Assembly (NCBI GenBank): GCA_900128395.1
Contig: LT649305.1
Span: 1-40,815, forward strand
Length of the DNA stretch: 40,815 nt
Direction of reading: 5' to 3'
Source of the DNA: Stramenopiles sp. TOSAG23-2
Lineage: Eukaryota
Translations under genes and position numbers: made by a program
Notes under the pieces: model-generated
What the model saw: the letters and a program-made list of their open reading frames with translations, nothing else
What the model was told of the DNA's origin: nothing
Database searches by the model: none
Shown: piece after piece, positions 4,056 through 27,300 of the stretch
Layout of the letters: every line of letters starts with the position of its first letter
Position numbering within the stretch: the stretch's first letter is position 1

Positions 4056-5767
4056 TATGCAAGGCACCACAAGAGCTCCCAGGAGCTTATAATTTCAATA
4101 ATTTTTCCGTGGGATGTGCGCGTTGTGGTAGTACTGATGAGTAAATAAGGGAATCTGCATCATCAAATTTCACATACAAATTTCACGTTTCTCATTTTTT
4201 ATACTTTTTTATAAAGTAATTCGTCATAATTTTACTATTACTAATTAACTTCAATTTGCCTGGCCCTTCTTTTTTTTTCACTTATCAACACTCACGAAAG
4301 AAAAATGAAAAACCAAAATACACTCTAAAAACACGAAAATACAATTTAACTCTACAATTTCAAGCAAGTGTATCACATTAAGTTAGTTTAAGACATATAT
4401 ATCAAAATCTTAGAGTTAAATTACATCGTCAAACATATATATCACTTTTTTGTTTTTCAGCGTACGTCTATATTAACCATTTACACGAAATTATGCCTAA
4501 AAAAGAGAAAAAAGGTAAATTCAAAAGGAAAGTCTGGTGAATCTAGATGTGTCACAAGAGATAGTGCAAAAAAAAGTGGTATGGATGATTGAAACATCCA
4601 TCATACATGTTAGAAGACTTATATTTTGATTTGGTAGAAGAAATATATACAGAAACAATATTTAATATGTGTCGTTGTGTGTGTGATCATTAACATGTAT
4701 ATATACTAAATATTAATAGGTTGTGTAATATATAAAGAAATTAAAGTTAATTCAATATATACTATTTTATCATTTTTATAAAACGTATTTAATTTTACCT
4801 TCTAAAAATTTGTCGCTTCATCTTCTATGATATATTTAAGCGTATTCGACACCATATCTTTATTTATAAATATGTTTATTGATCTTATTTACGTATAAAT
4901 TATATTATATATAATATATACAAACCGTTGTAATTTTATTGAATAGAGACAATATGCTATATATACAACAAATGTAGATTTTGATGATTGACAGCACCAC
5001 TTACAAAATATTGTTCCTATCAATATTTTTTGTACCAAATCCAACTGGGGCTTCCCTGACATGTATGAATGGAATCCCAATCGGTCAGAACACCATACGA
5101 AATGTATTCCTTGTCGCCCTGAAAAATATTTACCATTTAATGTGAGAACGATACATTGTACTTTTATAGACAGAAAAATAGCATAATTTCGTGTAAATGG
5201 TTAATATAGACGTACGCTGAAAAACAAAAAAGTGATATATATGTTTGACGATGTAATTTAACTCTAAGATTTTGATATATATGTCTTAAACTAACTTAAT
5301 GTGATACACTTGCTTGAAATTGTAGAGTTAAATTGTATTTTCGTGTTTTTAGAGTGTATTTTGGTTTTTCATTTTTCTTTCGTGAGTGTTGATAAGTGAA
5401 AAAAAAAGAAGGGCCAGGCAAATTGAAGTTAATTAGTAATATATCATTTTACTTTTGGATTGTTTGGAATTGTTTTCTTTTCTAATTTTACCTTAAACTA
5501 AATAACATTCCTTTTCACATCAAAAATCGATTTTCGTTTTACATTTTTTGCACATCGATCACTAGAAAAACGTTGTGGCATGTGCCATGAGGTTTTCCAA
5601 ATACATGGACATACCATTGCAGTTTTCAGCCACTACACCTCCATTTTACACGTAAATACACATAAATTACATGTATAGATGATGGATGAAGAAAATAGAT
5701 AGATGCACAGATATATGTAAAGAGATACGTATCCGAATGAGAATTGAAACACGTGGTGCCTTGCATA
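4056..5767. mobile_element. Putative non-autonomous DNA element bounded by 15-bp inverted termini
   Basis: TATGCAAGGCACCAC (4056-4070) is the exact reverse complement of GTGGTGCCTTGCATA (5753-5767). The outer TA could be a target duplication. No long ORF inside; encloses the 261-bp inverted repeat. Confidence 0.45.
4236..5441. repeat. Long inverted repeat: 261-bp arms (4236-4496 / 5181-5441), 684-bp spacer
   Basis: Arms read as exact reverse complements by eye, including the T9/A9 run and both arm boundaries. Confidence 0.93.
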
Positions 5768-8586: not shown

Positions 8587-9130
8587 TTATTGCAACACCC
8601 ATTGCTTCTCTTGTTCTTCATTTATACCTCCTCCTCTACCTTCATAATTCATGTTACGAATTAAATGTTTACCATTAAATCGAAAGGTATTATTATCAAC
8701 CCATAATTTTTCAAAAAGTGGTTTTGTTAATTTGATGGAATATTGTTCATTCATAAATTCATCTAAAATAGTTAATAGTATGGCACTTTGTTGTTAAAGT
8801 TGATTTGTAATGCATGTGTTGTTTGCCTGCCATCATTTGTCAATATAGGAAAGTCTTGATTTTGGCGATAATTTCCAACACCTATGAAGTCATTCGGTAA
8901 CGCAGAGCCACCACTAGCAACACTATTATGTGCTGGTGGAAGCGCTGGTAAACTTTGGCTATATCGCAAACTATCTACCGTGGCGATAATGATTTTGAAC
9001 GTGGTAAATAATGTTTTAACTTTCTCATCATGATATCATATTCTTCATCTAATTCATTATTGAAATTATTATTATTATTATCATCATATTCCCAATTATT
9101 ATATCTACCATTCTCATATCGATTAGACAT
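8587..9130 (-). CDS. Small hypothetical protein, 116 aa; exons 9130-8979 and 8785-8587
   Basis: ATG 9130 opens MSNRYENGRYNNWEYDDNNNNNF...SKSLSP. A 193-nt GTAGAT...CAACAAAG intron (8978-8786) restores frame into RAILLTILDEFMNEQYSIKLTKPLFEKLW...WVLQ*. Total 351 nt; acceptor matches that of the neighbouring gene. Confidence 0.6.
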
Positions 9131-9320
9131 GCTTTATTAAAACAACTAAGTAAACAAATTGTTAATAATGATGATTGTATTAATAATAACAGAGAGTTGG
9201 TTGTATGAATAGTTTCTCCCTTTTTCTATTTTATCTTTGTATGTAGTCGTATACATAAAATACTGTACATATTTTTGTTTTCTTACTATTTTTTTTATAA
9301 ATAACGTTTTTGTCGTCTTC

Positions 9321-9384
9321 TGCATGCTGGGCATGCTGGGCATGCGGGGGTCGGATCCTCTCTAGGCATGCCCAGCATGCCCAG
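9321..9384. repeat. GCATGC(CCA/TGG) 9-bp unit array forming a 19-bp inverted repeat
   Basis: CTGGGCATGCTGGGCATGC (9327-9345) pairs with GCATGCCCAGCATGCCCAG (9366-9384). The array resumes at 9721-9754, after the MITE-like element. Confidence 0.85.
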
Positions 9385-9726
9385 TCTGTCCATTAATTAA
9401 TAAAATGATAAAATCCTGGCATTTTGGGCATGAAATCAATTTGATGAAAAATGAAAATCCGAGAATCATGATTTCATGCCCAAAATTCCAGGATTTTATC
9501 ACTTTAAAATTATTATAATAAATATCCGATACATAATTTGATACAAATATATTATTATTATAGTTATTAATAATATTATATTTTGACTATATAATTCCAT
9601 AATTAAAAAACCAAGGTATAGAAATAATGCATTTACTTACGGAAAATATTTTCACCTGAAATCTTGTTTTTAGTGCTATGTAGTGCTAAATTTTCCGTAA
9701 GTAATTAATGGACAGACTGGGCATGC
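9375..9726. mobile_element. MITE-like non-autonomous element (~340 bp) with terminal inverted repeats and two internal hairpins
   Basis: 25-bp perfect IR GCATGCCCAGTCTGTCCATTAATTA (9375-9399 / 9702-9726), whose outer palindromic GCATGC may be the TSD. Internal IRs: 9406-9438/9469-9501 (32/33 match) and 9633-9647/9690-9704 (15/15). AT-rich and non-coding. Confidence 0.7.
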
Positions 9727-9947
9727 CCACATGCCCTGGGCATTCCAGCATGCAACGACGCGTCGCACACTGGCACACGGCACACACCGTCTGTTTTTCT
9801 CTTTGGTTTTTTTAGTTAGTCAGAATTAGAGCATTAAGGTATTTTATACTATAATGGTATATAAGCCTATTTTAATATAGTGCTGTGCTATGCATGTTCT
9901 TTGGAAACAGCCTTTTTCATTCTACATTACTTTTACGTATCGCAAAG

Positions 9948-10004
9948 TAATAGCTATTAGTAGCTAGCTCCTAGCTAGCTGGCTAGCTCGCTAATAGCTA
10001 TTAG
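9948..10004. repeat. AGCT/TAGCTA-rich palindrome cluster
   Basis: TAATAGCTATTA (9948-9959) and CTAATAGCTATTAG (9991-10004) flank repeated TAGCTAGCT units. Confidence 0.7.
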
Positions 10005-10125
10005 ATATAAAGAATAGTATATCCATGTTTGCGTCTCTCATCACCTATATACTATATACGCCTATCCAGCCTTTATTATTATCCACGGTATAGCTAACAT
10101 GGTCATACCATTCATCTTTCACTCC

Positions 10126-10176
10126 TTATTATGTCCAGGAAATATCTCTTACTATGTCCAGCTTACTGGACACAAT
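10126..10176. repeat. Left subterminal box array of the YR element
   Basis: TTATTATGTCCAG (10126-10138), TTACTATGTCCAG (10149-10161), 4-nt spacer CTTA, inverted box CTGGACACAAT (10166-10176). Confidence 0.9.
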
Positions 10177-10183
10177 GGGAATA

Positions 10184-10261
10184 GCATGGAGAGCTTCGCT
10201 CTCCATGCAACTCTGGTATCAGGGCCTTCGGCCCTATCAAAACGAAAGACGAAGTTTTGAT
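10184..10261. other. Three consecutive hairpins, two with C(GAA)G triloops on the minus strand
   Basis: GCATGGAGAGC-TTC-GCTCTCCATGC (10184-10208); AGGGCC-TTC-GGCCCT (10221-10235); ATCAAAAC-N10-GTTTTGAT (10236-10261). Confidence 0.85.
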
Positions 10262-10465
10262 GAAGGTAGAAGGTAAAGGATTATGGCCAATGAAAATAAT
10301 TACAAGTATTTATTTCTTCAATAAGCAAGAACAAGAGGAATAGGAAATAGTCAATGAACATGTAAAGCATACATGTTTACTGCAACATACAAACGGTTCG
10401 TATTAATATAATATTATATTATTATATTATTATATCAAGTTTGTAGCATACAATTATACTTTAAC

Positions 10466-12895
10466 ATGCCTCCTCGATCAACTCCATCATCTGTAGTAAA
10501 AAACAGAATCAAAAGTGATTATCATACAGCCTTAGCAGGCTTTGCAGATTGGTACTTTAATATCTTCCCAAATGGAGACAATGTTGCTGACAATGACGAA
10601 AGGAAAACATTATTGACACCAAATAATGCGCCTTTACGGTATTTCGATATCCCGGATAAAGCAAAATTTGTCAAACATATGGAAAATGTTGATATTGATA
10701 AGAATATTTTATTTGTTCATGTTCTATGGAAAAGAGATACACATTTCTGGCCAGAAGGACATTTTGGTAAAACTTACTTTGATCATCTTCGTTCAGGTTT
10801 ACTATTACGTTTGAATGAAGTATCTTCTGGACCAATGGACTATTCACAGCAGGCAACATCCAACATCAAAAAGTTTTATCAAGGTTTGAATAATGAATTG
10901 AAAGATCAAAAGGATGATGCTGGGTGGGATAGCAAAGGAACATCTGCTGTTCCTTGGTCTGTATATTTAGCAATTGCTACATATTTGTTGAGTGTTGATG
11001 TAACATATTGGCTTATGTTCCTCTTACAGTGGAACTTGATGAGTCGTAGTGTTGACATAACAAAAATAAATATTACTAGTTTTAGCTTTGATAATGATAT
11101 GTTAACTATTTTATATACACACCGTAAAACTCAAAGAAAAAAATCGACATCAACAGCAAATACTGTTCATATTGCAAGTAATCCCGTCAATCCAATTGTT
11201 TGTTGTGTATTGGCTCTTGCTGTAAATTTATTGAACAAAAATATTGATAACTTACAATTATTTGAAGGTGGATCAATTAAAAGTGGATACAGTAAGGCAA
11301 TTAGTGAGGCCTTAGACGATCCTGGTGTCAAAGAAGCACTCAAGGCTGTTGGGCTGTCTAAAGCAAAAATAGCCACTCATTCTTTGAGAAAATCTGCTGC
11401 GACATATGCTGCATCAGGAACTGACGGCACCCCTATGCATTTTACCATCCTCCTTCGTGGTGGTTGGTCCATCGGTAATGTATTGGAACGCTATTTTAGT
11501 CAAGCTGACCACGGAGATAAATTGATTGCTAACATTCTTGCTGGACGTAATTTTTTTACGAAAAGTTTCTCCCGACTCATACCGCATTTTAAACCTGACC
11601 AAAATCTTAAGCCAGATGTACTAAAAAGCCTATTTCAGGGAAAGTACATTGAGGAGTCATTTGATGAAATGGAAGGTTTCCTCCAGATGATGGTAGCACA
11701 ACTAGTATATCATTATGATTTCTTGGAAATTACATTAGGTGAAAATTCTTCTGTTGTTGGTGCATTAAACCGGAATTTTTTAAATCATCAAGATTTGAAA
11801 AATGCACTTGGTCCAGATTTTGCAGATGAAACCACACAAATAAAGGCTACTGGCCAAGGTGGTTCTGTTGTATACCAAAGACTGGAAAAAATTGAGAAAC
11901 AAAACGAAGCCATCATTCAAACACTTGATACTATTGTAAAATTGCTTACTGGTACACGCAATGGAAATCAAGTTGTTACACAACCAGGACAACAACAAGT
12001 ACCTACTGCTTGGGCTGGTACTGCAATTGCTAATACAAATCAAAATGAGTTAGTCACATGTTTAAAAAAACTAGTACTAGATGGTCAAAAAGCAACAGTA
12101 GCTGCTGTTAAAAAGACCATTCAGGATATAAGTGGTGTATCAGCACCAACAGATGTACAACAAGTACACTTGAATGTGTTTGTGCATAATAGTGTCAAAG
12201 GTAGAGTATGGAAAGTAGCAAAAACTTACTGCCTCCCTACTGATTTTCGAGAAATGGTCCGCCAATATGTTTTTTCGAATCGCAGTACACGTCAAACAGC
12301 ATTGCGTGATTGTAATGCTCGTAATATCTTTTATGATGTTACTGATGATCCAAATAACGCAAAGAAAAAAAAAGCCTTTCGTAAGAAATACCAGCGTGCA
12401 ATTGTAGCAGTAAATTGCTTCTTACAATTTGCTTATATCAAGCATCGAGAGAAGTATAACCGTTTCTTGAATGAAAGGTCTGATCCGTATAAACGTGGTA
12501 CATTATTTAATGTTCTGTATCGGTCTGCCTGGGTTGATTTCAATTCTACATTAGTTTCACGCAAACGTAAACGAAAACTAAACGAAATTACGCCCGGCAC
12601 AGTATATATGCATATGCATCGTCGTACAGATGATTCAACATTTATCAAACGGTTACGAACATCGTGTAATCTTTCCACCATGTCCAAACGAGAACAAGAA
12701 TGGTCCTATCCACTACCATCACTAACATTCACAGAATCAGATGCTAGTCCATTACTTGATATTGAAGAAAATTCAACAGCAAGTGGCATGGCAAGTAATA
12801 TGATGATGCCAATGCCGTCGACTTCAGATGTTGTCGATTCAAGTAGCACAACTTCTACTACCACAATTGCAACAAATACACAACAAAGTGTGTAA
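10466..12895 (+). CDS. Tyrosine recombinase of CryptonS type (809 aa) with a C-terminal putative DNA-binding (GCR1_C-like) region
   Basis: Catalytic set R194 (WNLMSRS), K221 (RKT), H305-x-x-R308 (THSLRKSAAT), W334 (LRGGWSIG), Y343 (LERY). The HIASNPVNPIVCCVLALA segment resembles oomycete/diatom Crypton YRs. Basic NLS-like runs KKKKAFRKK and RKRKRK. Confidence 0.9.
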   Translation: MPPRSTPSSVVKNRIKSDYHTALAGFADWYFNIFPNGDNVADNDERKTLLTPNNAPLRYFDIPDKAKFVKHMENVDIDKNILFVHVLWKRDTHFWPEGHFGKTYFDHLRSGLLLRLNEVSSGPMDYSQQATSNIKKFYQGLNNELKDQKDDAGWDSKGTSAVPWSVYLAIATYLLSVDVTYWLMFLLQWNLMSRSVDITKINITSFSFDNDMLTILYTHRKTQRKKSTSTANTVHIASNPVNPIVCCVLALAVNLLNKNIDNLQLFEGGSIKSGYSKAISEALDDPGVKEALKAVGLSKAKIATHSLRKSAATYAASGTDGTPMHFTILLRGGWSIGNVLERYFSQADHGDKLIANILAGRNFFTKSFSRLIPHFKPDQNLKPDVLKSLFQGKYIEESFDEMEGFLQMMVAQLVYHYDFLEITLGENSSVVGALNRNFLNHQDLKNALGPDFADETTQIKATGQGGSVVYQRLEKIEKQNEAIIQTLDTIVKLLTGTRNGNQVVTQPGQQQVPTAWAGTAIANTNQNELVTCLKKLVLDGQKATVAAVKKTIQDISGVSAPTDVQQVHLNVFVHNSVKGRVWKVAKTYCLPTDFREMVRQYVFSNRSTRQTALRDCNARNIFYDVTDDPNNAKKKKAFRKKYQRAIVAVNCFLQFAYIKHREKYNRFLNERSDPYKRGTLFNVLYRSAWVDFNSTLVSRKRKRKLNEITPGTVYMHMHRRTDDSTFIKRLRTSCNLSTMSKREQEWSYPLPSLTFTESDASPLLDIEENSTASGMASNMMMPMPSTSDVVDSSSTTSTTTIATNTQQSV

Positions 12896-13225
12896 TATGT
12901 AATATATTTTTTTGTTTAATTATTATATATAATAATAAATAGTCTTTGACACACACATCATTATTTATTATTATGGTTTTAAGTCTCCTCGTATAATTCT
13001 TATGCTATCCCCCTGCTACGCATCTCCTGCGCTCGTATACAATGATATTTATATGTATAATAACTGCTCAACTGCTGTAAAATCTAATAATTTCTTTTAT
13101 ACTTGCTATTCTACTAAAAGTAATACATATAATAATAAAGTATCCTTAAAATACATATCAATTATCAATTATTCACTATTAAAACTATCCGGTATTTATA
13201 AGGTGAACCAGTGCTAATATTATAA

Positions 13226-13372
13226 TTATCATGTCCCCCAAACTGGACATAATAACAGCAAGAACTGAGTATTCTGAGTTCTCTAACGCTGTGTCATGCT
13301 AGCAGAACTGGAAAATATCTCTTACTATGTCCAGACACCTGGACATAATAAGAGATTTTCTGGACATAATAG
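13226..13372. repeat. Right subterminal box array of the YR element
   Basis: TTATCATGTCCCC-CAAA-CTGGACATAATAA (13226-13255); TTACTATGTCCAG-ACAC-CTGGACATAATAA (13322-13351); CTGGACATAATAG (13360-13372). The 22-mer AAATATCTCTTACTATGTCCAG is identical at 10140-10161 and 13313-13334. Confidence 0.9.
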
Positions 13373-14132
13373 TGGCGGAATCAGAAATCTTGTTATCTAT
13401 GGTACAGTATTGATGCGTTTTTCATCAACGAACTTTCTACAGTATTTTTATAGCCATTTTGCCAAAAAATATCGCTACATACTTAGTTATAACACTATCA
13501 ATATAATAATGATTTTAATCATATCACTATGGTAAAGATGTTTAGGTGAAAAAATATACTATCCAAACATAATTAACTACCAAGTAAGTCTGGTATAATT
13601 TTTTCTGTCAGTCTTTTATTTTTTACGATAGGGTTGAAATTTATTCGACATCTATCTATCTAGAAAAATGGTGCTAGACACATGCTAATTGTTCCCGTCC
13701 ACAAACCACATATGGAAGACCCATTTCTATAATATGAAGATAGCATAGAAGGCTTAAATTAAATTACGGCTTGTGATTGGTGGAGTTCCAACTGAACGAA
13801 AGTAAATTTCAAACAACATTATTTTTATCCAATTATAAGACTGTTAAGAATAGAAAAGTAAAAAATTAGTCGGTTGCCATTTTGTTGTAAGTAAAAGTTA
13901 TCCAATGCTATTTGCATTCTAAATTGATACTAACAACGACCAAAAAAAGAAAATCTTAACAACTATTTTTATCATACATACACACACACACACAAAAATA
14001 TAAGTATATATATATATATGTATATATGCTTACACATCAAACTGGATATCAAATTTATGCTTAAAACACATTAATAACTAGAACTATTCAGATCAAAACA
14101 AAAGACACAAACTATAAACTATTATATAAAAA

Positions 14133-14906
14133 ATGAAATCCGCTACATTCATTGTTGTAATCGCTACTGTACTTGGTGCAGCAAATGCATACTGCCCAAA
14201 CGGTTGCTCTGGTCATGGTACATGTCAAACAGCTTCCACATCAACTGGAACTATTAAAGATAGTTGCTTATGTTTCACCCATTTGGATGGTGGATCCACC
14301 CCAGTACCAGCATGGACTGGCGCAGATTGCTCCTTACGTACATGCCCAAGAGCAGGAGCATGGGCAGCAGCTCCAGCAGCAAACAACGACCACGTTTCCG
14401 GCGACAACCATGTAGAATGTGCTAACAGAGGTAGCTGTGACCGTAAATCTGGTACTTGCTCTTGTGCAACAGGATATGCAGGTGCTGCATGTCAACGTTC
14501 CGTATGCCCTAATGACTGTAACGGACATGGTGTATGCCAAACACAAAAACAACTTGCTGATGACTATTCACATAATGCTGACGATAATGCAGTAAGTTCT
14601 CAATTTGCAACCCCAGACGCAGACAAAGATTGTGTCGATTGTACTGGTACACCAAACTCAGGTGCTGTTTATGATAGTGCATGGGACAGTGGAAGAAGTG
14701 TAGGGTGTAAATGTGATTCCGGTTTCGCAGGTCCAGATTGTTCATTGCGTGAATGTCCATCAGAAGACGATCCATTGGGAGGTCCAGGTAGAAGCCAAGG
14801 CCGTGTATGTTCAGGACGTGGTACATGCGATTTTACAACTGGAAGTTGTAGCTGTTTCAGTGGATACTATGGTGAACGTTGCCAAAGTCAAACAGTATTA
14901 TTTTAA
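14133..14906 (+). CDS. Tubular mastigoneme (flagellar hair) protein, short SIG/Ocm-type EGF-like protein
   Basis: Signal peptide, then CPNGCSGHGTC, WTGADCSLRTCP, ECANRGSCDRKSGTC, CQRSVCPNDCNGHGVC, WD..RSVGCKCD.GF.GPDCSLRECPSEDDP, CSGRGTCD...QTVL. This architecture is characteristic of stramenopile mastigoneme proteins. Confidence 0.88.
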   Translation: MKSATFIVVIATVLGAANAYCPNGCSGHGTCQTASTSTGTIKDSCLCFTHLDGGSTPVPAWTGADCSLRTCPRAGAWAAAPAANNDHVSGDNHVECANRGSCDRKSGTCSCATGYAGAACQRSVCPNDCNGHGVCQTQKQLADDYSHNADDNAVSSQFATPDADKDCVDCTGTPNSGAVYDSAWDSGRSVGCKCDSGFAGPDCSLRECPSEDDPLGGPGRSQGRVCSGRGTCDFTTGSCSCFSGYYGERCQSQTVLF

Positions 14907-15349: not shown

Positions 15350-18300
15350 CTATAATTCATCACACCATACTTCTGGAATTGAAATCGACTCATATTCCGC
15401 AGAATGTACTTCGAAATTTCTAAACGAACCATTCATTCTACAAAAATTTGATTCTGTCTTTTCATAAAAATCCCACATAACATGAGCTGCAATGGTAGTG
15501 ATTCCTTCAGTACATTGAACGCATTTTCCAGGAAAATGTTGACCGGCCTTGCCATAAGAGATGCCTTCACAAGCAGGATTTTTGGCACAAAGATTTTGAC
15601 ATTCTTGCAGTGTATAAATATTTGGCCAGTTAGGATGAGTAGTAGAAATGTCATTCCAGCCATCGTTACAATATTTGCCAACCTGAGGCTGTGCATAATC
15701 ACTTCCATGCGCCCCTAATAAAATGCGTGATGTTTGGTATTTCGTCGTCGGAGTATCAGATGATTTGATACCACTTGCCTTTTTGCAAACTCTCCTGTTC
15801 TTTACATTGTCTTGACCGTTGTTTCCAGGATTCCACACGATTCGATTCCCATCTCCATTCGCTGCACTTTTGTCATTGTAATATGAACACCCTGAAGGAT
15901 GTAGATTTAGGTTAGTTGCCTGCTCGAAGACCGTGCCACTTCCACCATCCAACATCATGGTATCTTTTGCATGCTTACATTCTTCTTTTGTAAGTTCATA
16001 TAAACCGCAACGATCCCTCTCCGACTCCGCTATAACATAGGAATGCTCCCCATCATCTTCATGTATTATAATCTCATCACATTTCACAACCGTTTTTTCG
16101 GAATCAATTATAATCGCATAAGAATGCCAACGATTATCGTTGCAATGACTATTATGAAATATTGTATTTGTCAGTTTAAACTCTCCAACATGAATAATGC
16201 TTCCGTAATTTATAGTATCCGTAGTAATTTCTCGAACTTGAGCTTCAAATTGAACGACAATCGTTTGAAAGCTTGGGAACAAATTTTCTATATCGATTGA
16301 CAAAGCAGAAGTGCTAGCAGTATACCCGCCACTATCAATTATTCTGTTTGAATCTTGCAAAAGCGATCGTTTGCTTGCTTTAAAGTCATACCATTTATGT
16401 ATTGGTATCGCCGGATAAAAATCTCTTTCAACCGCTGTAGAAGCTTGTTGGCATTCCGCTAATGATAAACGCTTATTGTAAATTGTAACATCGTTTATAC
16501 GCCCGATATGAGATTGTGTCGGATCGAATTTACCACCAGTTTCATCTGGTTCTTCACCTATCATTACAACCGTTGATGCATCGCTGAAGACATACGAATT
16601 GGCAGAAAAAGTAATCTTGTTCACACCATCAATCGCCAAAAAGGAATCTGCAGCTCCTTTTTTATAAGATAAGCATATATGATACCATTTATTTTTATTT
16701 ATTTCAGATGCTGAAGTATCTACAGTATTAGCATGAGTAATAACGACACGTGCTTTTCCATCAGGTTTAATTCCAACATAAAAATTATTGTCACCACCAG
16801 CATCACTTGATAATGCAAACACGGCGTTACATCCTGTGTTAAACTCGTCGACTTTTATCCACATTGACACAGTATATTCTTCATACTGATATGCAAGACT
16901 TGTACTTGGGTTAGGTTGCAACATCATGTAAGAATCGCTATATTTTTCCAAATTATTAGTAACATAATCCATCCTTGGATAATTCGAAGGTTTATAAAAC
17001 TTATATCCTATCTTTCTAAACTCGTTCCATTTATAAATAGGGGTTGTGGGGTAGCTAGATGCTCCAGGCGCGGTAGATGCTTGTTGACATTCAGATAACG
17101 ATAAACGCTTATCATACACTGTCACATCTTTCATTTGACCCACAAAAGCTTGGGTGGAATCTAGTTTACCCCCAATACTGTCTTGTTCCTGACCTAACAT
17201 TATAAACGTATTTACGTCATTATAGACATCGACGTTACTAGAAAATGTTTTTTTATTTACACCGTCAATTGCCAAAAAGGAATCTGCAGCATCTTTTTTG
17301 TAAGATACGCAGATATGATGCCATGTATCTACATTTATCACAGAAGTTGAAGTTTCTCCTCCAAAACTACTAAAGTAAATCCCTGCTTTACCATCAGAAT
17401 GTATACCGACAAGAACATTGTTACTACTAAGTGTACTTGCTAGTGAAAACATTGCCATGTAAGATCTGCTACCAAATGAATCCTCTGTCTTTATCCACAT
17501 TGATATACTATATTCACTAAATGTATTTGCTATTACACCCGTTCCTCGTATGTATAAAAATTGCAATGCTTTTATCTGTGAATCCGTTAATTCTACCGTT
17601 TCTGAGTATAGTACAGTATTATCCACTATACATTCAACGCCGATACCTATAGTAGCTTGAACGTTGTGTAGACCAAAGCCTTCCACATTGTCAGCAACTG
17701 TTATCGACTTTGTATCTTTTAAAGCCCAATAAGTAGAGACGGCCTCGTCTTTATGATAAGGATTTGTCAAAACATACGATCCAGCATCGATTATTTTAAA
17801 CCCCGCTTCATCTTCGACAATATTTGTTTCAGCTAATACCATATCAACAATAGAATTACCAGTAAGTGTATGAAATAACCACCGATTATCATAGTTTGGT
17901 AATTTATTTATTACAGCTTTTTCTGTAAAGAGATTCAAAATTTGTGAAACCGTTGTATCACTTAAATATGTATCATAAATTGCAATTTGGCGCATCTGTC
18001 CTTTGAAATGTTGATTAGTACTTTTATCTTTACACCACCCTGCCGTTATTTTCGTATCGGCATCTGTTACAGAATTTAAAACATATTGATTAGCCCATCT
18101 TATATCGGAGCTAGAACTGACAAGTTCACCGTCCATATTGTAAATTTCCATCCTTTTCTTCTTACCATCAACCCTTGCAACTGCTATATAATCCTTGCCA
18201 GATTCTATCTTTGCATTGGGGAAATTAGAATTTTCTACATGTGTTGTTAAATAGTTGGTGGTGGAATATTTACGCACTGTCCAATATTGATCCTTTCCCT

Positions 18301-21300
18301 GTCCAATCAAATGATTCCATTCACCCGTCATATCATCAAAATGAAATGATACGAAAACGGTTAACATTTGATTTGCTGGTGTTGGTACGTTTGCAGAAGT
18401 CTCTAATTGACCAATAGCAAATTTAATAGACGGTAAGCCATTTATACCATCTGTGATGTATGTAACTGTACCAGTCGCCGTCGTCGGTATCAAATGCCTG
18501 TCATTGCCTGACAAATCATTCCATTGAGTAACATCATCTGCATTACTGCATGTCGTACTACAGGTTACACTACTCGCGTCGTACAATGCAAATAGATTTG
18601 TCGTGCCAGTAATTTCTGAAAGACCATTGTAAAGTGTATCACCATCTAAATTTGCACTAGTAATATATACATCTCCAACTGCATAGGTTTTAGGCATTCC
18701 TGCAAATAAAGTTGGATTTACATTGTCCACATAGCTGGAGATGGACCCGACAGATGGTTGACCTGGTTTACACTGACCCACACTCGGCGAACCATTAGTT
18801 AAACAACGGGCTAATCTTTCTTTTGTCCTGGCATTTTCTAATGTATTTTTCTCTTTCATGTATGCACCGACATATCTTGTTCCACATTTTCTTGACGGCG
18901 GGAAACTGGAGGTAGACAATGGGCATGTGTATTGTGTACCAAAACAATTAGTGATTTCAGTTTCGCGTAATATACCACAAGCTGTTCTCCAGGCATCTCT
19001 ACGAGTGTTACAAGCTGCCTCTGTAGTTGGATCTGGTCCTCCTTGATTGTGGTCGTGGAACCAACCTATATCCCCTAAAGCAGGAAAGTCTGCACACGGA
19101 CCTACAATTTTGATCATGCAAGTTACAATATCTGGTGTCCGGTAGATATTGTGCGATATTTTATCTATGGCATGAAATTTATCAAGCGTTATCGTTGGCG
19201 AAAGCAATGTACGATGTAAATTTAGTTTTCCATCTTTTGTTTTAAAGATATGCGCCGCTTTAGATGCTTCGTTGTCTGTAAATTTGCTTCGATCTAACGT
19301 CAGCGTGCCATTTTTGACATAAATTGCACCTCCACGCGTATCAGCATCAGTACTTTCATAAACTTGAAAATTTCTAAAGGATCCTTGCATTCTACTATGA
19401 AATGTGCTTGAATCATAATGTGCACCAAGAACAATATCATTGTTTTTATTGTTTAAAGAGGTTGTTCCAAAATTTTGATAGATCAACAATCCATCACATT
19501 TTACAACAGTTTTTTCAACATCTTGTATGACAGTATACTGATGGTAATTTCCATCGTCACATATACTATTTTTAAAATTATGATTTTCAAATTTCAAATT
19601 CCCTATTTGAAACAAAGAAGCAGAACTTGCTCTTCCAGGAATCCATTCATAGTTACATCGCGATTGTGGAGAGTCTCGACAGACTGGCCGCGATGAAGCA
19701 TGAGAGCTTCCCGTTTCATGCCGGTTCCAACGCACTATATGATACGATGGATTGATCTCAAATTTTATTTCAAAAATCCAAGGTGTATTCGTAGCTGGAA
19801 AGGCAACTTTAATTCTGCGTGTTTGAAACATTTTAGGACATTCCCTATATTGAAAAGAATAGGTTGCATCATCAGTGGTTAAAGCGCTACTACATTCTTC
19901 AACCCATGAATCTGATGTTTTGATGTAGCTAAATAATTTAACCCCAGTTGCTCTATTAGTACCTACCCGTACATAGACACCAACAATATTATATTCAAAA
20001 CCAAGATCTAGGGTAAAATAATGTTCAAAAGTACTACTTTCACCAGTTTTTGGATGCCAAAAAACATTGCTACTATCCAATACTTTTGCAACATCAAATA
20101 TGATATCATCATCGACATCGGGAGTACCAGTGGATACGCAACCAGTACAATCAACCCACCATGCCGGATTTGCCTCGAGAGTACGCGTATGATCTACTAA
20201 TCCACTTTCATAGTAACAACCCTTAGGACGAGAAGGATAGTCAACTTCAATGACGCCCGTCTGTAAGCAAATTGGTTGATGCAATCGATTTTTCATAACC
20301 GTATAATCTTCGTTGTATGCCAAAGCATTATTTCCGATGGCCTCATCGTTATATACGTAACAAGGGCTGGCTGAACCGCCTTTTGAAAATCGCTTGCTTT
20401 CATACGTGTGCCATTCCGTACTTTCAGTCTTTTTCGAACAAGTTAGGGTAATGGATTTACCATGAGCATCACTAGCAACTGTTACAACTTGTTCATTGTC
20501 ATCATTTCTGCAAGTATACTTCACAATGTAATTCTTCGTTGAACACCCAGAAGCTAGATCGTCAAGAACGTTCGAATTTACATTATATACGCAAGAAAAT
20601 TGATGGTCACATTTGCTTTTAATATCGGACAAATGGTTTCCAGAATTATCAGATGTTCCTGGACAATTTGCTCCATAATGCGCGTAGTGTACGTCAATAG
20701 TTGCAATGCCAACAAACCAAGCTGTTGCTTGCCAATCACATTGATAATAATGATCGCAAAACATCGTATTTTGAAACGCAAAAGCTTTACATCGAGGTTC
20801 CTCCAAACATTTTTTTCTACATAGATCTATATCTAGGTTATTTCCTAACATTTTTTTTGTTTGGGTCGGCAATGTTCCATCTTGAAAGGCGAATGCATTT
20901 ACAATAGACGAGACGATATCATCATTTAGGTATGTATCAAATATGGCAAGTTGACGCATGTAACCAGAAAAACTATCTTGATTATTATCGCGGGTACTGC
21001 CTCTAGCAACATTTATTTTCTGCGTGCCAGATGGAATTTTTTCACTAGCAGTGCCTTTTGTATATGCACGACTTAGTAGCTCACCTTTCATGTTATAAAG
21101 TTTTATTTCTCGCATTTGTCTATGGACTCTTGCCACGATTACATAATCCATATCAGCATTTATATCTATCTTTGGATCTGCGTCATTAACGACTTGAAGC
21201 CACAATTTTGAATCCTTATCATGTCGAATCAATCTCCAGTAATTATCATGCCCTTGGCCTACCAAATGGTTCCACCCCTCATTAAATGCATGAAGTTCAG

Positions 21301-24300
21301 TAAATCGAAATGACAATATCATAGTCACATTTCTTGAGGAAGGTGTTGAAGACGCCGATGCAGTTTCCATGAAGCCACCGTTAAAATAAACAGAAGGCAA
21401 TCCAGCAATGCCTTCGTTTTTGAAAGTGACTGAATTTTCTCCAGTGATTGTATCTTTTATCAAATGATTATCGTTCCCTGACAAATCATCCCATTGAGTC
21501 AATTCATCGCCATCAACAATTCCTGTTATGCTATTTGCATCGTACAATGCCATCAAACTTGCTGTACCTGTTAAGTCGGAAATGGTTTCGGATAATAATG
21601 TTTTACCTGTCCACGTATGTGATCCATCCGCTTCTAAGCATGCTAATCTATTGTCGTTAAATTCAGCGTTACTGCATGTTCCACTTGGCGCAGTAACCCA
21701 ACCACCATTTGGTGCTTTGCAGCTATCACCATGCATAACTTGCCATGCATCATCCGATTTATATTCATTCGCTTCAATTGTTTCAGATGCGGGTAATCCC
21801 ATGGTTGGACATGCAGCTTCAGCATCCGTATCACCAGGCTGGAGACAGCAGCATAATGGGCGATGGTTAGCATGTAGATTAGCATCACACTGACTTGCAA
21901 GTTCTCCAGTACATGCACCAGCAGTACATCCCGCATGAAACCATGAGCACCCGGAATCCGAAATTCTTATAAATGGAGAACCGGCATAATCTCGCGCTAT
22001 ACTACCACCAATACCACAAGAAGCGCATTCTAGCTTGTTTGGAAGTTCATCATGATCTTTCTCCATATTAAAATTTACATGTTTTAATGCCATTTTCATC
22101 TTGTCACAAGTATCCAATTTTGTTTGTTGACCGGAGTTACATGTTCCTCCTACATGGTTACAAGCTTCATTGCAAGTATCACCTCCGTCACCCAATACCC
22201 AACGTGTCTTTCCCCCCAACTTTGGTAAACCAGTACCAGAAATTTGACCACCAGATGATTTGGCACAGCGTAAATAATTGAAATTTGATTGAAATGCAAT
22301 TTCACCAAGGCCGACTTGATTTCCATCGGATAAAGAGTATTGGTTGTAAAAATTACTTAACGTTTGCAATTTTACATATCTAGCTTGTATATTCATATCA
22401 AATGGAAAACTTTGCCTTGGTAGATGCCTGTAATTCAAAGAAAATGTTGGCTCATACCTTATAGATTCTCCAAAACGATCGAGTCCTTCTTCTTCTGTAG
22501 CAAATTGCAAAGTGAAATCTTTTAAACCATTTCCTGAACCATCATATCCCCAAAGACTGATTTCATTTATCGTTTCATCTTTTGCAAATGCAATTATTAA
22601 ATAAGGGTGGTGATTTACACTACCCATGAAATAACCAGGCCAATCAGTACTTTTCGTTAACCACTTGTTGCCGCCTATTTGATCATATGGTGCAGCACTA
22701 CTAAATCCAGTACCAGCACCTGATTTTAAATTGGATGCTGGATTTACATCGGTATCTGCGGAAGATGATGTAATGGAAACGATTGGAATAAACGTCGCAA
22801 CTTCATCCTCTTTCAATATAGTAGTGCCACTTGGACAGGTATATGTATCGGTAGGACCTATAAAGTATGGCGATATGTGCAAACCTGGAATTTTATTAAC
22901 ATTTTCAATTGTACACTGTTCATAAGTTAATGGAGTTCTTGATGAAACAGTTTCTTCAGCACTATTACACTCATTGCTATTTAGATTACCTAGACCATAA
23001 TATGGTTCCTGAATATCACAAAACCCTCTTTTTTTAAGATATTCATAATTTGATGGTTGGCAACTGGATTTGGGCGCATCTGTTGGCACATTGTTGAATT
23101 TATCTACTTTTTTACAGATTGGATAATGATGCCCTAATCCAGCACCAGTCCCATGTGAATTAAAACGTATACCCGTGCTTTTAACATCTTTGTTTGATAT
23201 ATCTTTGTAATAATAGCAACCTTTTGGTTTATTAGCATCCGTTTCCGTTGCATACGGATTTGATGTATGTTTCGATACGAATGCCACGATTTTTTTATCA
23301 TTGATAAAATTACATGCATCTGCATACCAAGCTGTGACCCCTGCATATAAATCGTTACAAGTAACGTTATCCGTATGTTTAAGACTATCCGAATTGTATT
23401 GTTGACAATCAGCATCTGTTGTACAGTCTCCAGCACCACTATTCCATAAGCAATCGGAATCACTTCCATAGCAATAAATGTTGTCATTTTCTACTCCTAC
23501 ACATACTGGCCCATCGGAATGAGAACCACACATAATAGAACCTTCCTTTCTACTTAATGCTTTACACGTCGCTTCATCAATCTCTTCCGCACCATCTGGA
23601 CATTTATTTCCCCCTGTATTTGCAATGTGATATGTTACTTCCTCCAATTCTGTAACTTCTTCAGTTGAAGTACACACTGGTTGAGCTATATGTGTTGCTG
23701 TTCCGGTTGAATGTCGATTGTACCGTACAACAATACCATCCACTGTACCAGTATTTATTGTATCGTCTGGTATCATACAAACAACTCCAACCGTTCCATC
23801 TCCAGTTATTTCTCCCTCAAGTTTACTAACTTCTCCTGCTACAGGAGTAGAACCTAAAGGACAGTCCGTTGGTATATCTTGATCCCTATGAAAAAGAACG
23901 CATTTACCTTCTGGATGGAATTCAACGGCTGCAATATCTGATCTCCAATAGACGGATGCATAACACTCTTCCGCAGATGTTCCTTCTTTTCCACCATCAA
24001 ATGTACAACTTGCTCCATATTTTCCATATACATCACGACATTGCCCTTCCGTTGTTTTATATGGATGAGATACGACAACATTTGGTGAAAACGGCGATTC
24101 CTTATTTGGAATGAGGCAATGATTGCTACCATCCCCATCGCCATTAACAATAACTTCACTATTGAAATCTACAGCCATATGGCCTTTCCCATCGCCAACT
24201 TGGCTTGCAGTGAAACCATCTGGACAATTTGTTGGACTTGCACCAGATGCATATATACTTTTGCATGTTACCCCATCATTACCAAGCGTAACAGCAACTA

Positions 24301-27300
24301 CACCATGTCTAAATGCAGTGCGAAAACATTCTGCAGGATTCCAAGCTAAAGTTTTTGAACAGTACCCCCCACTATAACCATTTGGATCTTTACATAATCC
24401 AGCTTCTTGAATGAATGGATATGGTTCGATGATGGAACATCCTTTTGGAATATGGCTATTATCTACTATTTCGTAAAATTTATTATATGCCTGCCAATTC
24501 AATGGTGGATTCTCACAGTATGCTTTATCAACTTGCCTTCCACCTTCTTTAATATTGCACGAGGATGGTATCCATTTTGGAAATTCTGCTTGACAATTTT
24601 CTTTACTAACTTCCCTGCCATGGTCATTTGGGTGCATGGCGTCTGATATACATAGAGGATAATCATGAGATTTTTTCGCTGAATATGGCAATACACGTTG
24701 ACAAAGTACTCCTAGTAAATCTTCCCCAATGCCAACATCATGCCATTTTCCATGCTCACCATCTCCATGTAGATCACTTTCCACGGCCATTCTAGTTTCC
24801 GTTGTACCTGCTATGTCTGTAAGCGATGAAGTGTAAGCCCATGGGCTAGTATCATCCCATGTCCATGTGCCAGCTCCATCTGACATTGCACCTACGTAAA
24901 ACATAGATGTAGTTACACTTTCCATTGCCTTTAAAGTCTGCTTCATTAATTTATTTTCTTCTTCGGTAAGAATAGTTGCAATGAATCCACCGTTCTGTAA
25001 ACACCATTGTTTTGAATCAACATAATTTCGAGCACCTGGCAAAGCGAAATATTCTTTATAGGTAGCTGATGGCCATGCACTTAATCCAGTTGGATGGCTA
25101 TTCCATCGTAAATGAATATTTTCATTCCCGTCATCAATTATATAGCATCCTGGTGGATTTAAATCTGAATAAATTGATTTAAAAGAAGCGATTTCAAATT
25201 CCACTTTTATCGTACGACTAAATGCAAATTGTATCGTTTCTTTTGTGCATTTATCTTGCGTAATTGAGGAGCTTCCAGTAGGACATGTTAAAGTGTTTAT
25301 ATGAAATATATGACTGCCACACGTACCTGCAGTCCATGTCCCTGTTGTTTCACACGCAGTGGCAGTTTTATATTGATCTTTGTTACATTCACCAGAAATC
25401 CAAGTTCCTTTTTGAACACATGCTTCCTCTGTCGTGTATGCCGCATCGGAGCAGCTGCCGCAAGTTGGGTGGGTTGGGTTGCCGGTAGTTGGACAAGCAG
25501 CTTCAGGATCATCACCGGGCTGGAGACAACAGCACAGAGGTTTATGACCAGCATTAATATTAGTATCACATGAACTTACATCGACCCCAGCAGTATATGA
25601 ATCATCAAAAAAAGCACAATTTGTATCACTGGACAATGGGGGACAACCATCAACGCATACATTTCCGTCTATGCCATCTGAGGCGCAACCACTTGCACAG
25701 TTATTAGATACACAACCCGTACAACATTTCCCACCTCCACAGGGACCCAGGCAATTTGAACAATCCCTTGGTAGAAAGAACGGAGTTCCTGCATAGTCAC
25801 GCCCAGCATGACAAGTATCGCCACAAGTATACCCAGCAGAGTTTGCTGCCATTTTTACCTTATCACATGTGTCTAATTTTGTTTGCTGAGCTGAATTACA
25901 CGTACCACTAATGGCATTACAAACAGTGTTGCAAGTATCACCTGTTCCGCCCATTACCCAGCGAGTAGCTGAGCTACAGTCTTTCACCGAATCAGTCCAC
26001 GTACCAGCTGGATTTTCACACAGAGTAGGACTTTTTTCTCTACCACCAGATGTTATATCACAATATCCAAGTTCCCATGATGTTCCATTGAGACGGCATG
26101 CTTTTTCAGTGGTGTATGCTGAATTAGAACAAGAGCCATCTGTCCATGTACCAGTACATGTTGATTTAGAAACTTTTTTACATAAAGTTATAATATCATT
26201 TCTACCTCGAGTTCCTCCCGTTGGATTATACTTTACATCATTCCATGGATATATACCAGCGCTGTAAGATGTGCCTTGATGCACATGGCAACCTTTTGGC
26301 ATGTCAGTATTACCAGTATTATCTAATGCTGCATCTGCGTCGGAGAAACCGGCACTTGTAGTTGCTGCGCTTAAACATTCATTTTCATCAAAATCCAAAT
26401 AGGATGTCTCAATGTCATCCATGAAAAGTGAGTCGCATTCTGGTCCATTTTCTAATGCAACATGTTCAAAACCATTTGTACAAGTTCCTTTTGTCCAAGT
26501 ATTTACGGTCGTGTCTAAACATGCAGTTTCAGAAACTTCCCTGCCCCCTGATTTAATATCACATTGTTTTACTGTAAATGAAGTCCATACTCCAGCAGGA
26601 CCAGTGCAATCGGCTTTACTAGCTTCCCTACCATTTTTAAATGCTGGATATATAGTTAATTCGATATCGTGCGCGCCGTAACCGTTCGGAGAAGATGTTG
26701 TTGATACATCATAAGGCTCACGGTTAGCCCAGTATGTTTCAATGTTAGCAGCAACAAAGGGAGACCCAGCACCTCTACCTGCGCTGATAGCTTTGACGCC
26801 AGCTTGATTACCATTGATAATTTTGGTTTGAACCATTATCATTTTAACATAATTAGCTCCATCAATATTGTGACCATATATCAACCATTTGTCAGAAGAC
26901 ACTTGATGAAAACTGGGGGAGCTGTAGGGAGCTGTCAAGGCGATAAATCCCCCATCCATCGTTGCATTAGTAATTTCAATTCTTCCAATATCATTAGCAC
27001 TAGTAAGAGCAGTAAGGTATGCACTTGTTGTTACAAATGTATTAGCTGCTGTGGTTCCTGTCTCTGTCGTAGAAGATGGGGCTGAACACATTCCTTCATT
27101 CCACGTACCAGGAGTTTCACATGCTACCTTCTCATTATATTCAGAACCTGTACAAAATGCCTCTGTCCATTTACCTTTGTTTTCACACGCAAACTCGTTT
27201 AAATATTGAACTGACCTAACACAAATACCAGCATAATGGAAGTAACAGTCCACCCCACCATTCTTAAAACGAAGAGCCCGGATCTTCATCTCATCTTCTC

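Follow-up and report, generated by a model that had tools for sequence, protein, structure and literature searches.

Ordered box arrays and joined ends in a Crypton-type transposon from a stramenopile: candidate accessory sites for its tyrosine recombinase

The locus: one gene and eight boxes

The window analysed here is the whole of contig LT649305.1 (40,815 nucleotides; assembly GCA_900128395.1) of Stramenopiles sp. TOSAG23-2, AT-rich eukaryotic DNA with ordinary protist genes. Its gene content and its presence in seawater samples point to a marine protist. About a quarter of the way along it lies an element that, judged by its sequence, is a Crypton in the broad sense: a transposon with a single gene, which encodes a tyrosine recombinase, and with arrays of a 13-bp sequence, the box, near both of its ends (Table 1). 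The gene is the single open reading frame (ORF) of at least 100 amino acids within the ends. Its R-H-R-Y product is the only enzyme of the element, and the neighbouring genes are eukaryotic. With no second ORF of that size, there is no excisionase gene among those considered; the element contains no replication gene either.

The recombinase belongs to a family with 1,321 representatives at E values up to 1e-30. In 110 aligned relatives R194, H305, R308, W334 and Y343 are invariant and K221 is nearly so. The 809-residue protein has no Pfam match, and a structure model of residues 1-755 (pLDDT 86.6) matches the folds of Flp, Cre, Ndc10 and Xer, with only the best match reaching an E value of 0.001; the Flp/Cre-like fold is confined to the N-terminal part of the model (residues about 1-375). 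In the Atlas the protein falls closest to clusters from oomycetes and diatoms that have no Pfam family, followed by the CryptonF type (third match, score 0.97). These neighbours are no more than a lead to its affinity, and the 10 clusters that were looked up carried no informative names. A profile search of PDB sequences yielded nothing meaningful, and 9000-14500 has no Rfam match. Seven RNA runs contain 17-33% of the words of the stretch, a measure of word sharing that says nothing on expression.

Table 1. Features of the element (positions in the window)
Feature	Position	Strand	Remarks
Whole Crypton-type transposon, unit of 3269 bp plus repeated TCA	10112..13383	+	Reciprocal joints; homology limits of L001, L002, L014
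Left crossover microhomology TCA (attL core)	10112..10114	+	Both joints; common to left ends of window, L001, L014
Left end kept by non-autonomous derivatives	10112..10240	+	About 3-10 times as deep as the gene; loose end at 10240 shared by 4/4 runs
Box L1	10126..10138	+	Exact
Box L2	10149..10161	+	Exact; 23 bp after L1; first arm of left inverted pair
Box L3	10166..10178	-	3 mismatches, core intact; second arm of left pair (spacer CTTA)
Hairpin, perfect 11-bp stem, 3-nt loop	10184..10208	.	Just inside left array; z about -5 together with second hairpin
Second hairpin, 6-bp stem, 3-nt loop	10221..10235	.	
Intronless ORF, 809 aa, tyrosine recombinase	10466..12895	+	R194, K221, H305, R308, W334, Y343
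Two long helices and disordered linker, residues 465-554	11858..12127	+	Between recombinase body and C-terminal domain; structure model
C-terminal domain, residues 566-755	12161..12730	+	Candidate box-binding domain
Right end kept by non-autonomous derivatives	13086..13380	+	Raised depth; loose end at 13086 in 4/4 runs
Box R5	13226..13238	+	3 mismatches; first arm of inner right pair
Box R4	13243..13255	-	Exact; second arm of inner right pair (spacer CAAA)
Box R3	13322..13334	+	Exact; first arm of outer right pair, 96 bp from inner pair
Box R2	13339..13351	-	Exact; second arm of outer right pair (spacer ACAC)
Outermost right box	13360..13372	-	One mismatch
Right crossover microhomology TCA (attR core)	13381..13383	+	Same triplet in L001; two of three letters in L002

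In Table 1 the boxes are compared with TTAYTATGTCCAG, exact matches to which average 0.02 in simulated windows (n=100; maximum 1). Allowing up to two mismatches is not selective (nine matches, where 3.55 are expected, three of the nine away from the arrays), and 55,868 bases of host DNA, taken from the window and from three loci, contain no match at one mismatch or less. The arrays are asymmetric, with three boxes on the left, five on the right and none at the crossover. An earlier note on this DNA, made from the letters alone, had counted at least eight copies; its coordinates and orientations were right, the copies now being specified as five exact, one near-exact and two degenerate, and the layout and the 4-nt spacers of the three inverted pairs that it described are borne out. 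The 22-bp direct repeat (10140/13313) and the inverted repeat of about 35 bp that it pointed to are also real. The direct repeat is best regarded as a by-product, because two close copies, L001 and L002, do not preserve its identity; the inverted repeat is imperfect (it carries a 2-nt indel), is a product of the box arrays and begins 8-14 bp inside the element ends. Columns 8-11 and 13 of the box are unchanged in 16 box comparisons with L001 and L002. In columns 6-7, beside the core, most differences among these three elements are A/G or T/C, some of them making or removing a CG, which is possibly methylation-driven decay.

Element ends, joined form and empty site

Contigs of four sequencing runs (among 23 listed) were aligned to 8600-14900 at 85% likeness; X4, X5 and X6 are seawater metagenomes from one study, and X2, the possible source, is a single-cell run. 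All three metagenome runs contain a joint that leads from 13380 directly into 10112, with contig depths of 34.3 (X4), 18.7 (X5) and 46.4 (X6) and shorter sides of 21, 54 and 116 letters, respectively. The reciprocal joint, 10111 to 13381, which corresponds to an empty site, is found in one contig of X6 (depth 3.6, side of 26 letters). At both of these joints the same three letters, TCA, fit either side: the integrated element has the triplet at each of its ends, and the joined form and the empty site have a single copy each. The independent insertions L001, L002 and L014 lie in other flanks and their homology with the window begins or ends at the element limits (for L001, the likeness spans 10111 to 13384). 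The empty targets are AT-rich, hold TCA and have no box. The outermost bases of the element are not inverted repeats, and long direct repeats were also not found at the ends.

The joints therefore define an element of 3,269 bp in which strand exchange takes place outside every box. Its true ends lie 14 bp (left) and 8-11 bp (right) further out than the limits of the box arrays, which the earlier note had taken as the ends; its judgement that the 13-4-13 pairs are not crossover sites is upheld. An assembly artefact is unlikely because reciprocity is exact, the X5 and X6 joints have sides of 54 and 116 letters, and the joints agree with three independent insertions. Taken together, the independent insertions, the empty site and the joined ends indicate, at the level of sequence, that the element is mobile; it is well-bounded and probably active, with the empty site itself weakly supported. 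The joined-end contigs may represent circles or tandem arrays, and fit both. Two pentamers that resemble CryptonS termini, CATGG at 10098 and TATGG at 13398, were considered as ends and rejected, both being outside the mapped ends.

Sites of the loxP/FRT type have inverted 13-bp arms around a 6-8-bp spacer that is identical between partners and in which strand exchange takes place. With 13-bp arms in inverted pairs and a recombinase body of the Flp/Cre fold, the palindromes of the window invite the interpretation that they are such crossover sites, or that the 22-bp direct repeat is the recombining unit, and one small joint in X4 (13307 to 13357, a 49-base skip) does delete the outer right pair. 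Yet no listed joint in the X2 and X4-X6 contigs falls in a pair spacer or links the 22-bp repeats (which were rejected as a recombining unit on that ground and for lack of conservation), the 4-bp spacers vary within and between copies, the core-to-core gap of a pair is 14, 15 or 24 in relatives (the sister subclade having 13-bp spacers), and the homology of independent insertions extends past the boxes to TCA. As the mapped joints read, this interpretation is already contradicted, and we regard it as barely conceivable.

Gene-less derivatives, hairpins and other end-joined loci

In 4/4 runs the two ends of the element have several times the depth of the gene and pass into foreign sequence at identical places, from which it follows that derivatives without the gene exist. 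One of them is seen directly in a 697-nt contig of X6 that passes from a foreign interior through the right end into the left end of the element. The gene-less derivatives retain both box arrays, and their natural minimal ends amount to about 130 and 300 bp. A differently damaged copy, L014 (4505-5347, in the same assembly as L001), has a correct left end, lacks the first two boxes and is missing approximately 990 bases of the gene.

Two hairpins follow the left array and are also kept by the gene-less derivatives. Hairpins occur at the equivalent place in L005 (102-166) and L006 (82-141) with different stem sequences; the longer one is broken in L002, and hairpins are not evident in the second subclade that is described below. 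In spite of the differing stems, at least one hairpin of the window, of L005 and of L006 shows a triloop of GAA or GGA when read on the minus strand; such triloops are very stable in single-stranded DNA. A minor opposite-strand joint in X6 (10208/13063) ends at the first hairpin.

One metagenome scan provided 80 related loci (the best 80 of 81 confirmed), 50 of them at least 2.7 kb long. Terminal redundancy was noted in 11; when L044, in which the repeat is internal, is dropped, 10 loci in 8 families assemble end-to-end, and the overlaps of several of these contigs are 92-99% alike. Three families (L008/L009, L028/L038 and L030-32/L033) are represented by both integrated and end-joined forms, with the crossover within 4-8 letters that the outer ends share. 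The end positions of two end-joined distant relatives, L019 and L071, could not be placed.

Might the joined form be a lasting, self-amplifying episome, with arrays and hairpins serving replication or partition (compare plasmid iterons and the yeast 2-micron circle) besides or instead of recombination? The junction contigs are 4-13 times deeper than the contigs of the host flanks (34.3/7.05, 18.7/4.59 and 46.4/3.6), as against 36 junction reads to 6,959 in a Starship (a figure from the available part of the source), end-joined loci recur in the 8 families just referred to, the closest solved folds include Flp and the centromere protein Ndc10, and hairpins persist with changed stems in L005 and L006. 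However, the depth figures average entire contigs and do not measure the junction; the same assemblies would result from tandem arrays, or from a modest pool of circles accompanied by many rare insertions; and imperfectly matched overlaps fit mixed copies. The lack of a replication gene, of hairpins in the second subclade and of a listed joint in the single-cell run also speaks against an episome, which we consider quite improbable.

Relatives: motif switching and constant spacing

The close copies L001 and L002 encode proteins with 89% and 81% identity to that of the window. A quick tree was used to take a 13-member clade around the window; wherever the ends of a member were examined, arrays of a six-base core are present. 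Two checks that the earlier note had proposed come out in its favour: related elements carry co-varying arrays of their own, and non-autonomous elements keep the boxes. The core GTCCAG is found 7-8 times in the window, L001, L002 and L005. L006, the sister of L005, has GTACAG 8 times and no GTCCAG; L003, the sister of the window group, has GGGGA[GC] 8 times and GTCCAG once; and the cores of the second subclade are of the GTCT type or GTCCAC. Given the placement of L003 and L006 on the quick tree, two lineages have therefore changed all copies at once, independently. No relative turned up in viral contigs, whether by protein or by right-end pattern.

The layout is kept where the motif is swapped. 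Across the joined ends the core-to-core gap is 37 in the window joint and in 4/4 end-joined contigs of this clade (L003, L006, L009, L013), and it is constant in both subclades, as is the next gap on the right (21-22). For the inverted pair the first subclade has a gap of 14-15 and the second one of 24, except that the extra pair of L017/L018 has 14; the direct gap is 23 versus 32-33. These two gaps differ between subclades by 9-10 bp, about one helical turn. The first subclade has its extra pair at the right end, the second at the left end. The innermost boxes enclose 22 bases; letters common to the two ends occupy positions 9-11 or 9-12 of these in the first subclade (L005 and L006 being compared by register) and 12-15 in L008 and L012; the crossover identity in the window clade amounts to 3-4 bases.

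Could the arrays be regulatory sites, for a host transcription factor or for autorepression by the recombinase, with no part in strand exchange? End joining places five more boxes upstream of the start codon, and circularisation raises recombinase expression in a Starship, according to the accessible part of a preprint (10.64898/2026.09.21.753150). A host factor, though, would not track whole-array changes of motif between close elements, the spacing from box to crossover is fixed to the base, and derivatives that have no gene to regulate retain both arrays. A purely regulatory role is accordingly very improbable.

Several further observations concern the wider family. The distant relatives L028, L030-L033, L036, L038 and L051 have looser inverted motifs (TTGCCG, CATAC/GTATG) near the left end and a crossover of the ATACAT type (demonstrated for L028 and L030-32); L030, L031 and L032 are insertions in different flanks. 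The flanks of the second-subclade elements L010, L012 and L018 are often rich in GATC/AGATCT words, a possible target preference of that subclade. At a loose end at 13360 in X6, the right end is joined to another element, whose box core is the same and whose pair spacer differs; further families with the same motif therefore occur in these samples.

A proposed mechanism

We propose, with a probability of roughly 0.6, that the window holds a recently mobile Crypton-type transposon whose eight boxes are phased, accessory, arm-like sites for its own recombinase. The single tyrosine recombinase would join both ends at the 3-bp TCA microhomology, releasing the end-joined form and leaving an empty site, and the end-joined form would then integrate into new targets, AT-rich sequences that contain TCA but lack the box. 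The boxes would be bound by the element's own protein; they would confer specificity on each element family, keep protein and DNA in a helically phased complex about the central 22-bp segment, where the catalytic domains cut, and let a sequence-tolerant core capture box-free targets. Directionality could also be set by the arrays, since the left and right arrays are unlike and come together only when the ends are joined.

That the boxes are binding sites for the element's own protein is the best reading because their position is fixed to the base, their copies change together, their spacing shifts by 9-10 bp between subclades and they are absent from targets. That they would be accessory sites is argued by the distance of the discriminating core from the joint (16 and 21 bp), and by six boxes that have no crossover nearby. 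A tolerant core that cuts at 3-4 matched bases, together with a second domain that reads the box, would explain how free choice of target is combined with strict recognition of the ends.

The C-terminal domain, separate from the recombinase body, basic and carried on a long linker, is a natural candidate for that second domain, and box binding by it is plausible; the long helices would tether it to the recombinase body in what, more tentatively, would be a bivalent enzyme. Modelled alone, residues 566-755 reach a pLDDT of 85.9. The domain contains 39 K+R against 15 D+E, the isoelectric point is 9.8-10.5 in 20/20 aligned proteins, and a consensus motif in the C-terminal part is conserved in the 110-sequence alignment and in 20 locus proteins. 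A homodimer prediction for residues 460-755, made without an alignment, scored 0.02 against a mark of 0.32.

The boxes may instead be accessory sites to which the ordinary core-binding and catalytic domains attach in a non-cutting mode, with the C-terminal domain otherwise employed (in non-specific DNA binding, target capture or nuclear import). There is precedent for non-cutting binding by core domains, at the direct repeats of Tn4430 TnpI and of integron attI. Head-to-head pairs of 13-bp arms resemble recombinase half-sites, divergence between the window and L005/L006 is faster in the N-terminal region than in the C-terminal one (27-29% versus 39-40% identity), and a co-variation test did not single out the C-terminal domain. 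On the other hand, the window and L005 use the same box with N-terminal regions that are only 27% identical, the discriminating core lies beyond the usual 11-13 bp of a core arm, and empty targets have no box. We see in this a genuine possibility, if an unlikely one.

A number of points weigh against the proposal that the boxes are arm-like sites of a mobile element. Box binding by the protein is deduced from sequence, and residues that track the box motif are no commoner in the C-terminal domain than in the control (8 vs 8). The C-terminal domain has no Pfam family (none is common to more than one of 21 members), no Foldseek match with E under 2, no Z score above 3.8 in a comparison with 48,161 chains and no usable Atlas match; these failures prove neither a new fold nor the absence of DNA binding. 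The motifs of the specificity table were chosen from the elements themselves, which leaves only the off-diagonal counts as a test. Phasing is not uniform, since the long pair-to-pair gap is 96, 97, 103 or 107, and more distant relatives have only loose motif arrays. As to mobility, the X4 joint and the empty site rest on sides of fewer than 30 letters, the three metagenome runs come from one study with reads placed at 85% likeness, the sole long junction contig (697 nt, X6) is a derivative without the gene, and the joint from 13380 to 10112 is not listed for X2.

A bolder version can also be imagined, in which marine protists would harbour the end-joined form in abundance, not as a passing intermediate but as a 3-4-kb episome of the nucleus that maintains itself in the manner of the 2-micron circle, with a bivalent recombinase whose C-terminal domain, of new fold, reads a fast-evolving box code that separates co-resident families. 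In this complete form it is doubtful.

All four junctions (both integrated ends, the joined ends and the empty site) are available at base resolution. Together with the minimal ends, an intact intronless enzyme and the natural specificity variants L003 and L006, they make the mechanism testable with one protein. If the phased, co-evolving accessory arrays are what we propose, a eukaryotic tyrosine recombinase has reached the arm-plus-core design of bacterial integrases with a different domain, and the arrays would suggest a purpose for Crypton C-terminal domains. An integrase for which three bases of target identity are enough, and of which orthogonal variants exist, could also serve as a tool.

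Surroundings of the element

Immediately to the left of the transposon, 9311-9826 contains nested small inverted-repeat elements, with arms at approximately 9365-9400 and 9703-9737 and an inner 38-nt inverted repeat (9401-9438/9469-9506); the depth of the stretch is in the hundreds, and the X4 joints 9310 to 9826 and 9336 to 9752 resemble alleles that lack them. Further left, a 1.2-kb stretch (4236-5441) with 261-nt inverted arms that are 100% complementary and without an ORF of 100 aa is probably a young non-autonomous foldback element. On the other side, part of an EGF-repeat gene (14297-14507 of 14133-14906) has a metagenome depth of 140-380 and is a large multi-copy family. An intronless ORF of 5,461 aa (15350-31735, minus strand), which contains long repeats rich in cysteine and has matches to Kelch, F5/8 type C and PAN, probably encodes a giant surface protein.

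Relation to known systems

The element has the general features of Cryptons: a short terminal direct repeat that reflects microhomology with the target, without target duplication (TCA, 3 bp and so below the usual 4-6 bp, with relatives that share 4-8 letters), no reverse transcriptase or DDE transposase, and neither terminal inverted nor long direct repeats. It is most like CryptonS, which, in the accessible part of Kojima and Jurka (2011; PMC3212892), is described from oomycetes and diatoms as lacking conserved nucleotide features and having a C-terminal region that is conserved, along with terminal repeats of 5-6 bp, most often TATGG. The likeness extends to a size of about 3 kb, one tyrosine recombinase gene, the absence of GCR1_C, the conserved C-terminal region, short terminal direct repeats and non-autonomous derivatives; the difference is in the terminal repeat, TCA in the window and TATGG or another 5-6-mer in CryptonS (PMC3212892, same part), which makes the element CryptonS-like in sequence without the CryptonS terminal repeat. 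The part of that paper at hand does not describe ordered, element-specific subterminal arrays, joined ends or empty sites.

CryptonF likewise combines a recombinase with a separate C-terminal domain, and Ndc10, among the fold matches noted above, is CryptonF-related. CryptonF, however, carries a GCR1_C DNA-binding domain, whereas neither GCR1_C nor NDC10_II was matched in the window protein, in any of 35 relatives or in any of 21 C-terminal regions. No description of the sites bound by GCR1_C in Cryptons was found in the literature searched.

The movement of Cryptons is mechanistically undemonstrated, according to the available part of a 2026 review (PMC13565253), and the portions at hand of PMC13465315, PMC10104507, PMC12130899 and PMC5753468 add no Crypton arrays or circles. 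The literature searched, which did not extend to Goodwin 2003, the Repbase entries or a 2019 review, any of which may bear on novelty, contains neither subterminal binding arrays nor observed joined ends of Cryptons, in agreement with the suspicion of the earlier note that this architecture had not been described for them.

Starships offer another eukaryotic comparison: they are also elements with tyrosine recombinases that excise cleanly at short microhomology, with a circular intermediate seen through junction reads (PMC10104507; 10.64898/2026.09.21.753150; both as partly available). They differ in being giant cargo elements with DUF3435 captains and in the great rarity of their junction, and the accessible text of the circle preprint (10.64898/2026.09.21.753150) makes no mention of binding or of a repeat.

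The architecture that the earlier note called lambda-like holds up as an analogy. Like lambda Int, IntDOT and Tn916-type integrases, the window element has extra sites, separate from a small crossover core and placed asymmetrically around it, at which protein would bind, and it is excised to a joined form. The analogy fails in the details: in lambda Int the arm-binding domain is N-terminal and the enzyme needs bending factors and excisionases (PMC2817482, in the part available), whereas the candidate domain of the window protein is C-terminal and unrelated by fold search, there is no second ORF of at least 100 aa to provide an excisionase, and 3-4 identical bases in this clade take the place of the full 6-8-bp overlap identity that lambda requires and IntDOT relaxes. 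IntDOT, which has an arm-binding domain and for which 1-2 bp of identity suffice at the first exchange (PMC2817482, same part), offers, by analogy, the nearest described logic for an element whose end architecture and joined forms are a variant of Crypton and not a new class.

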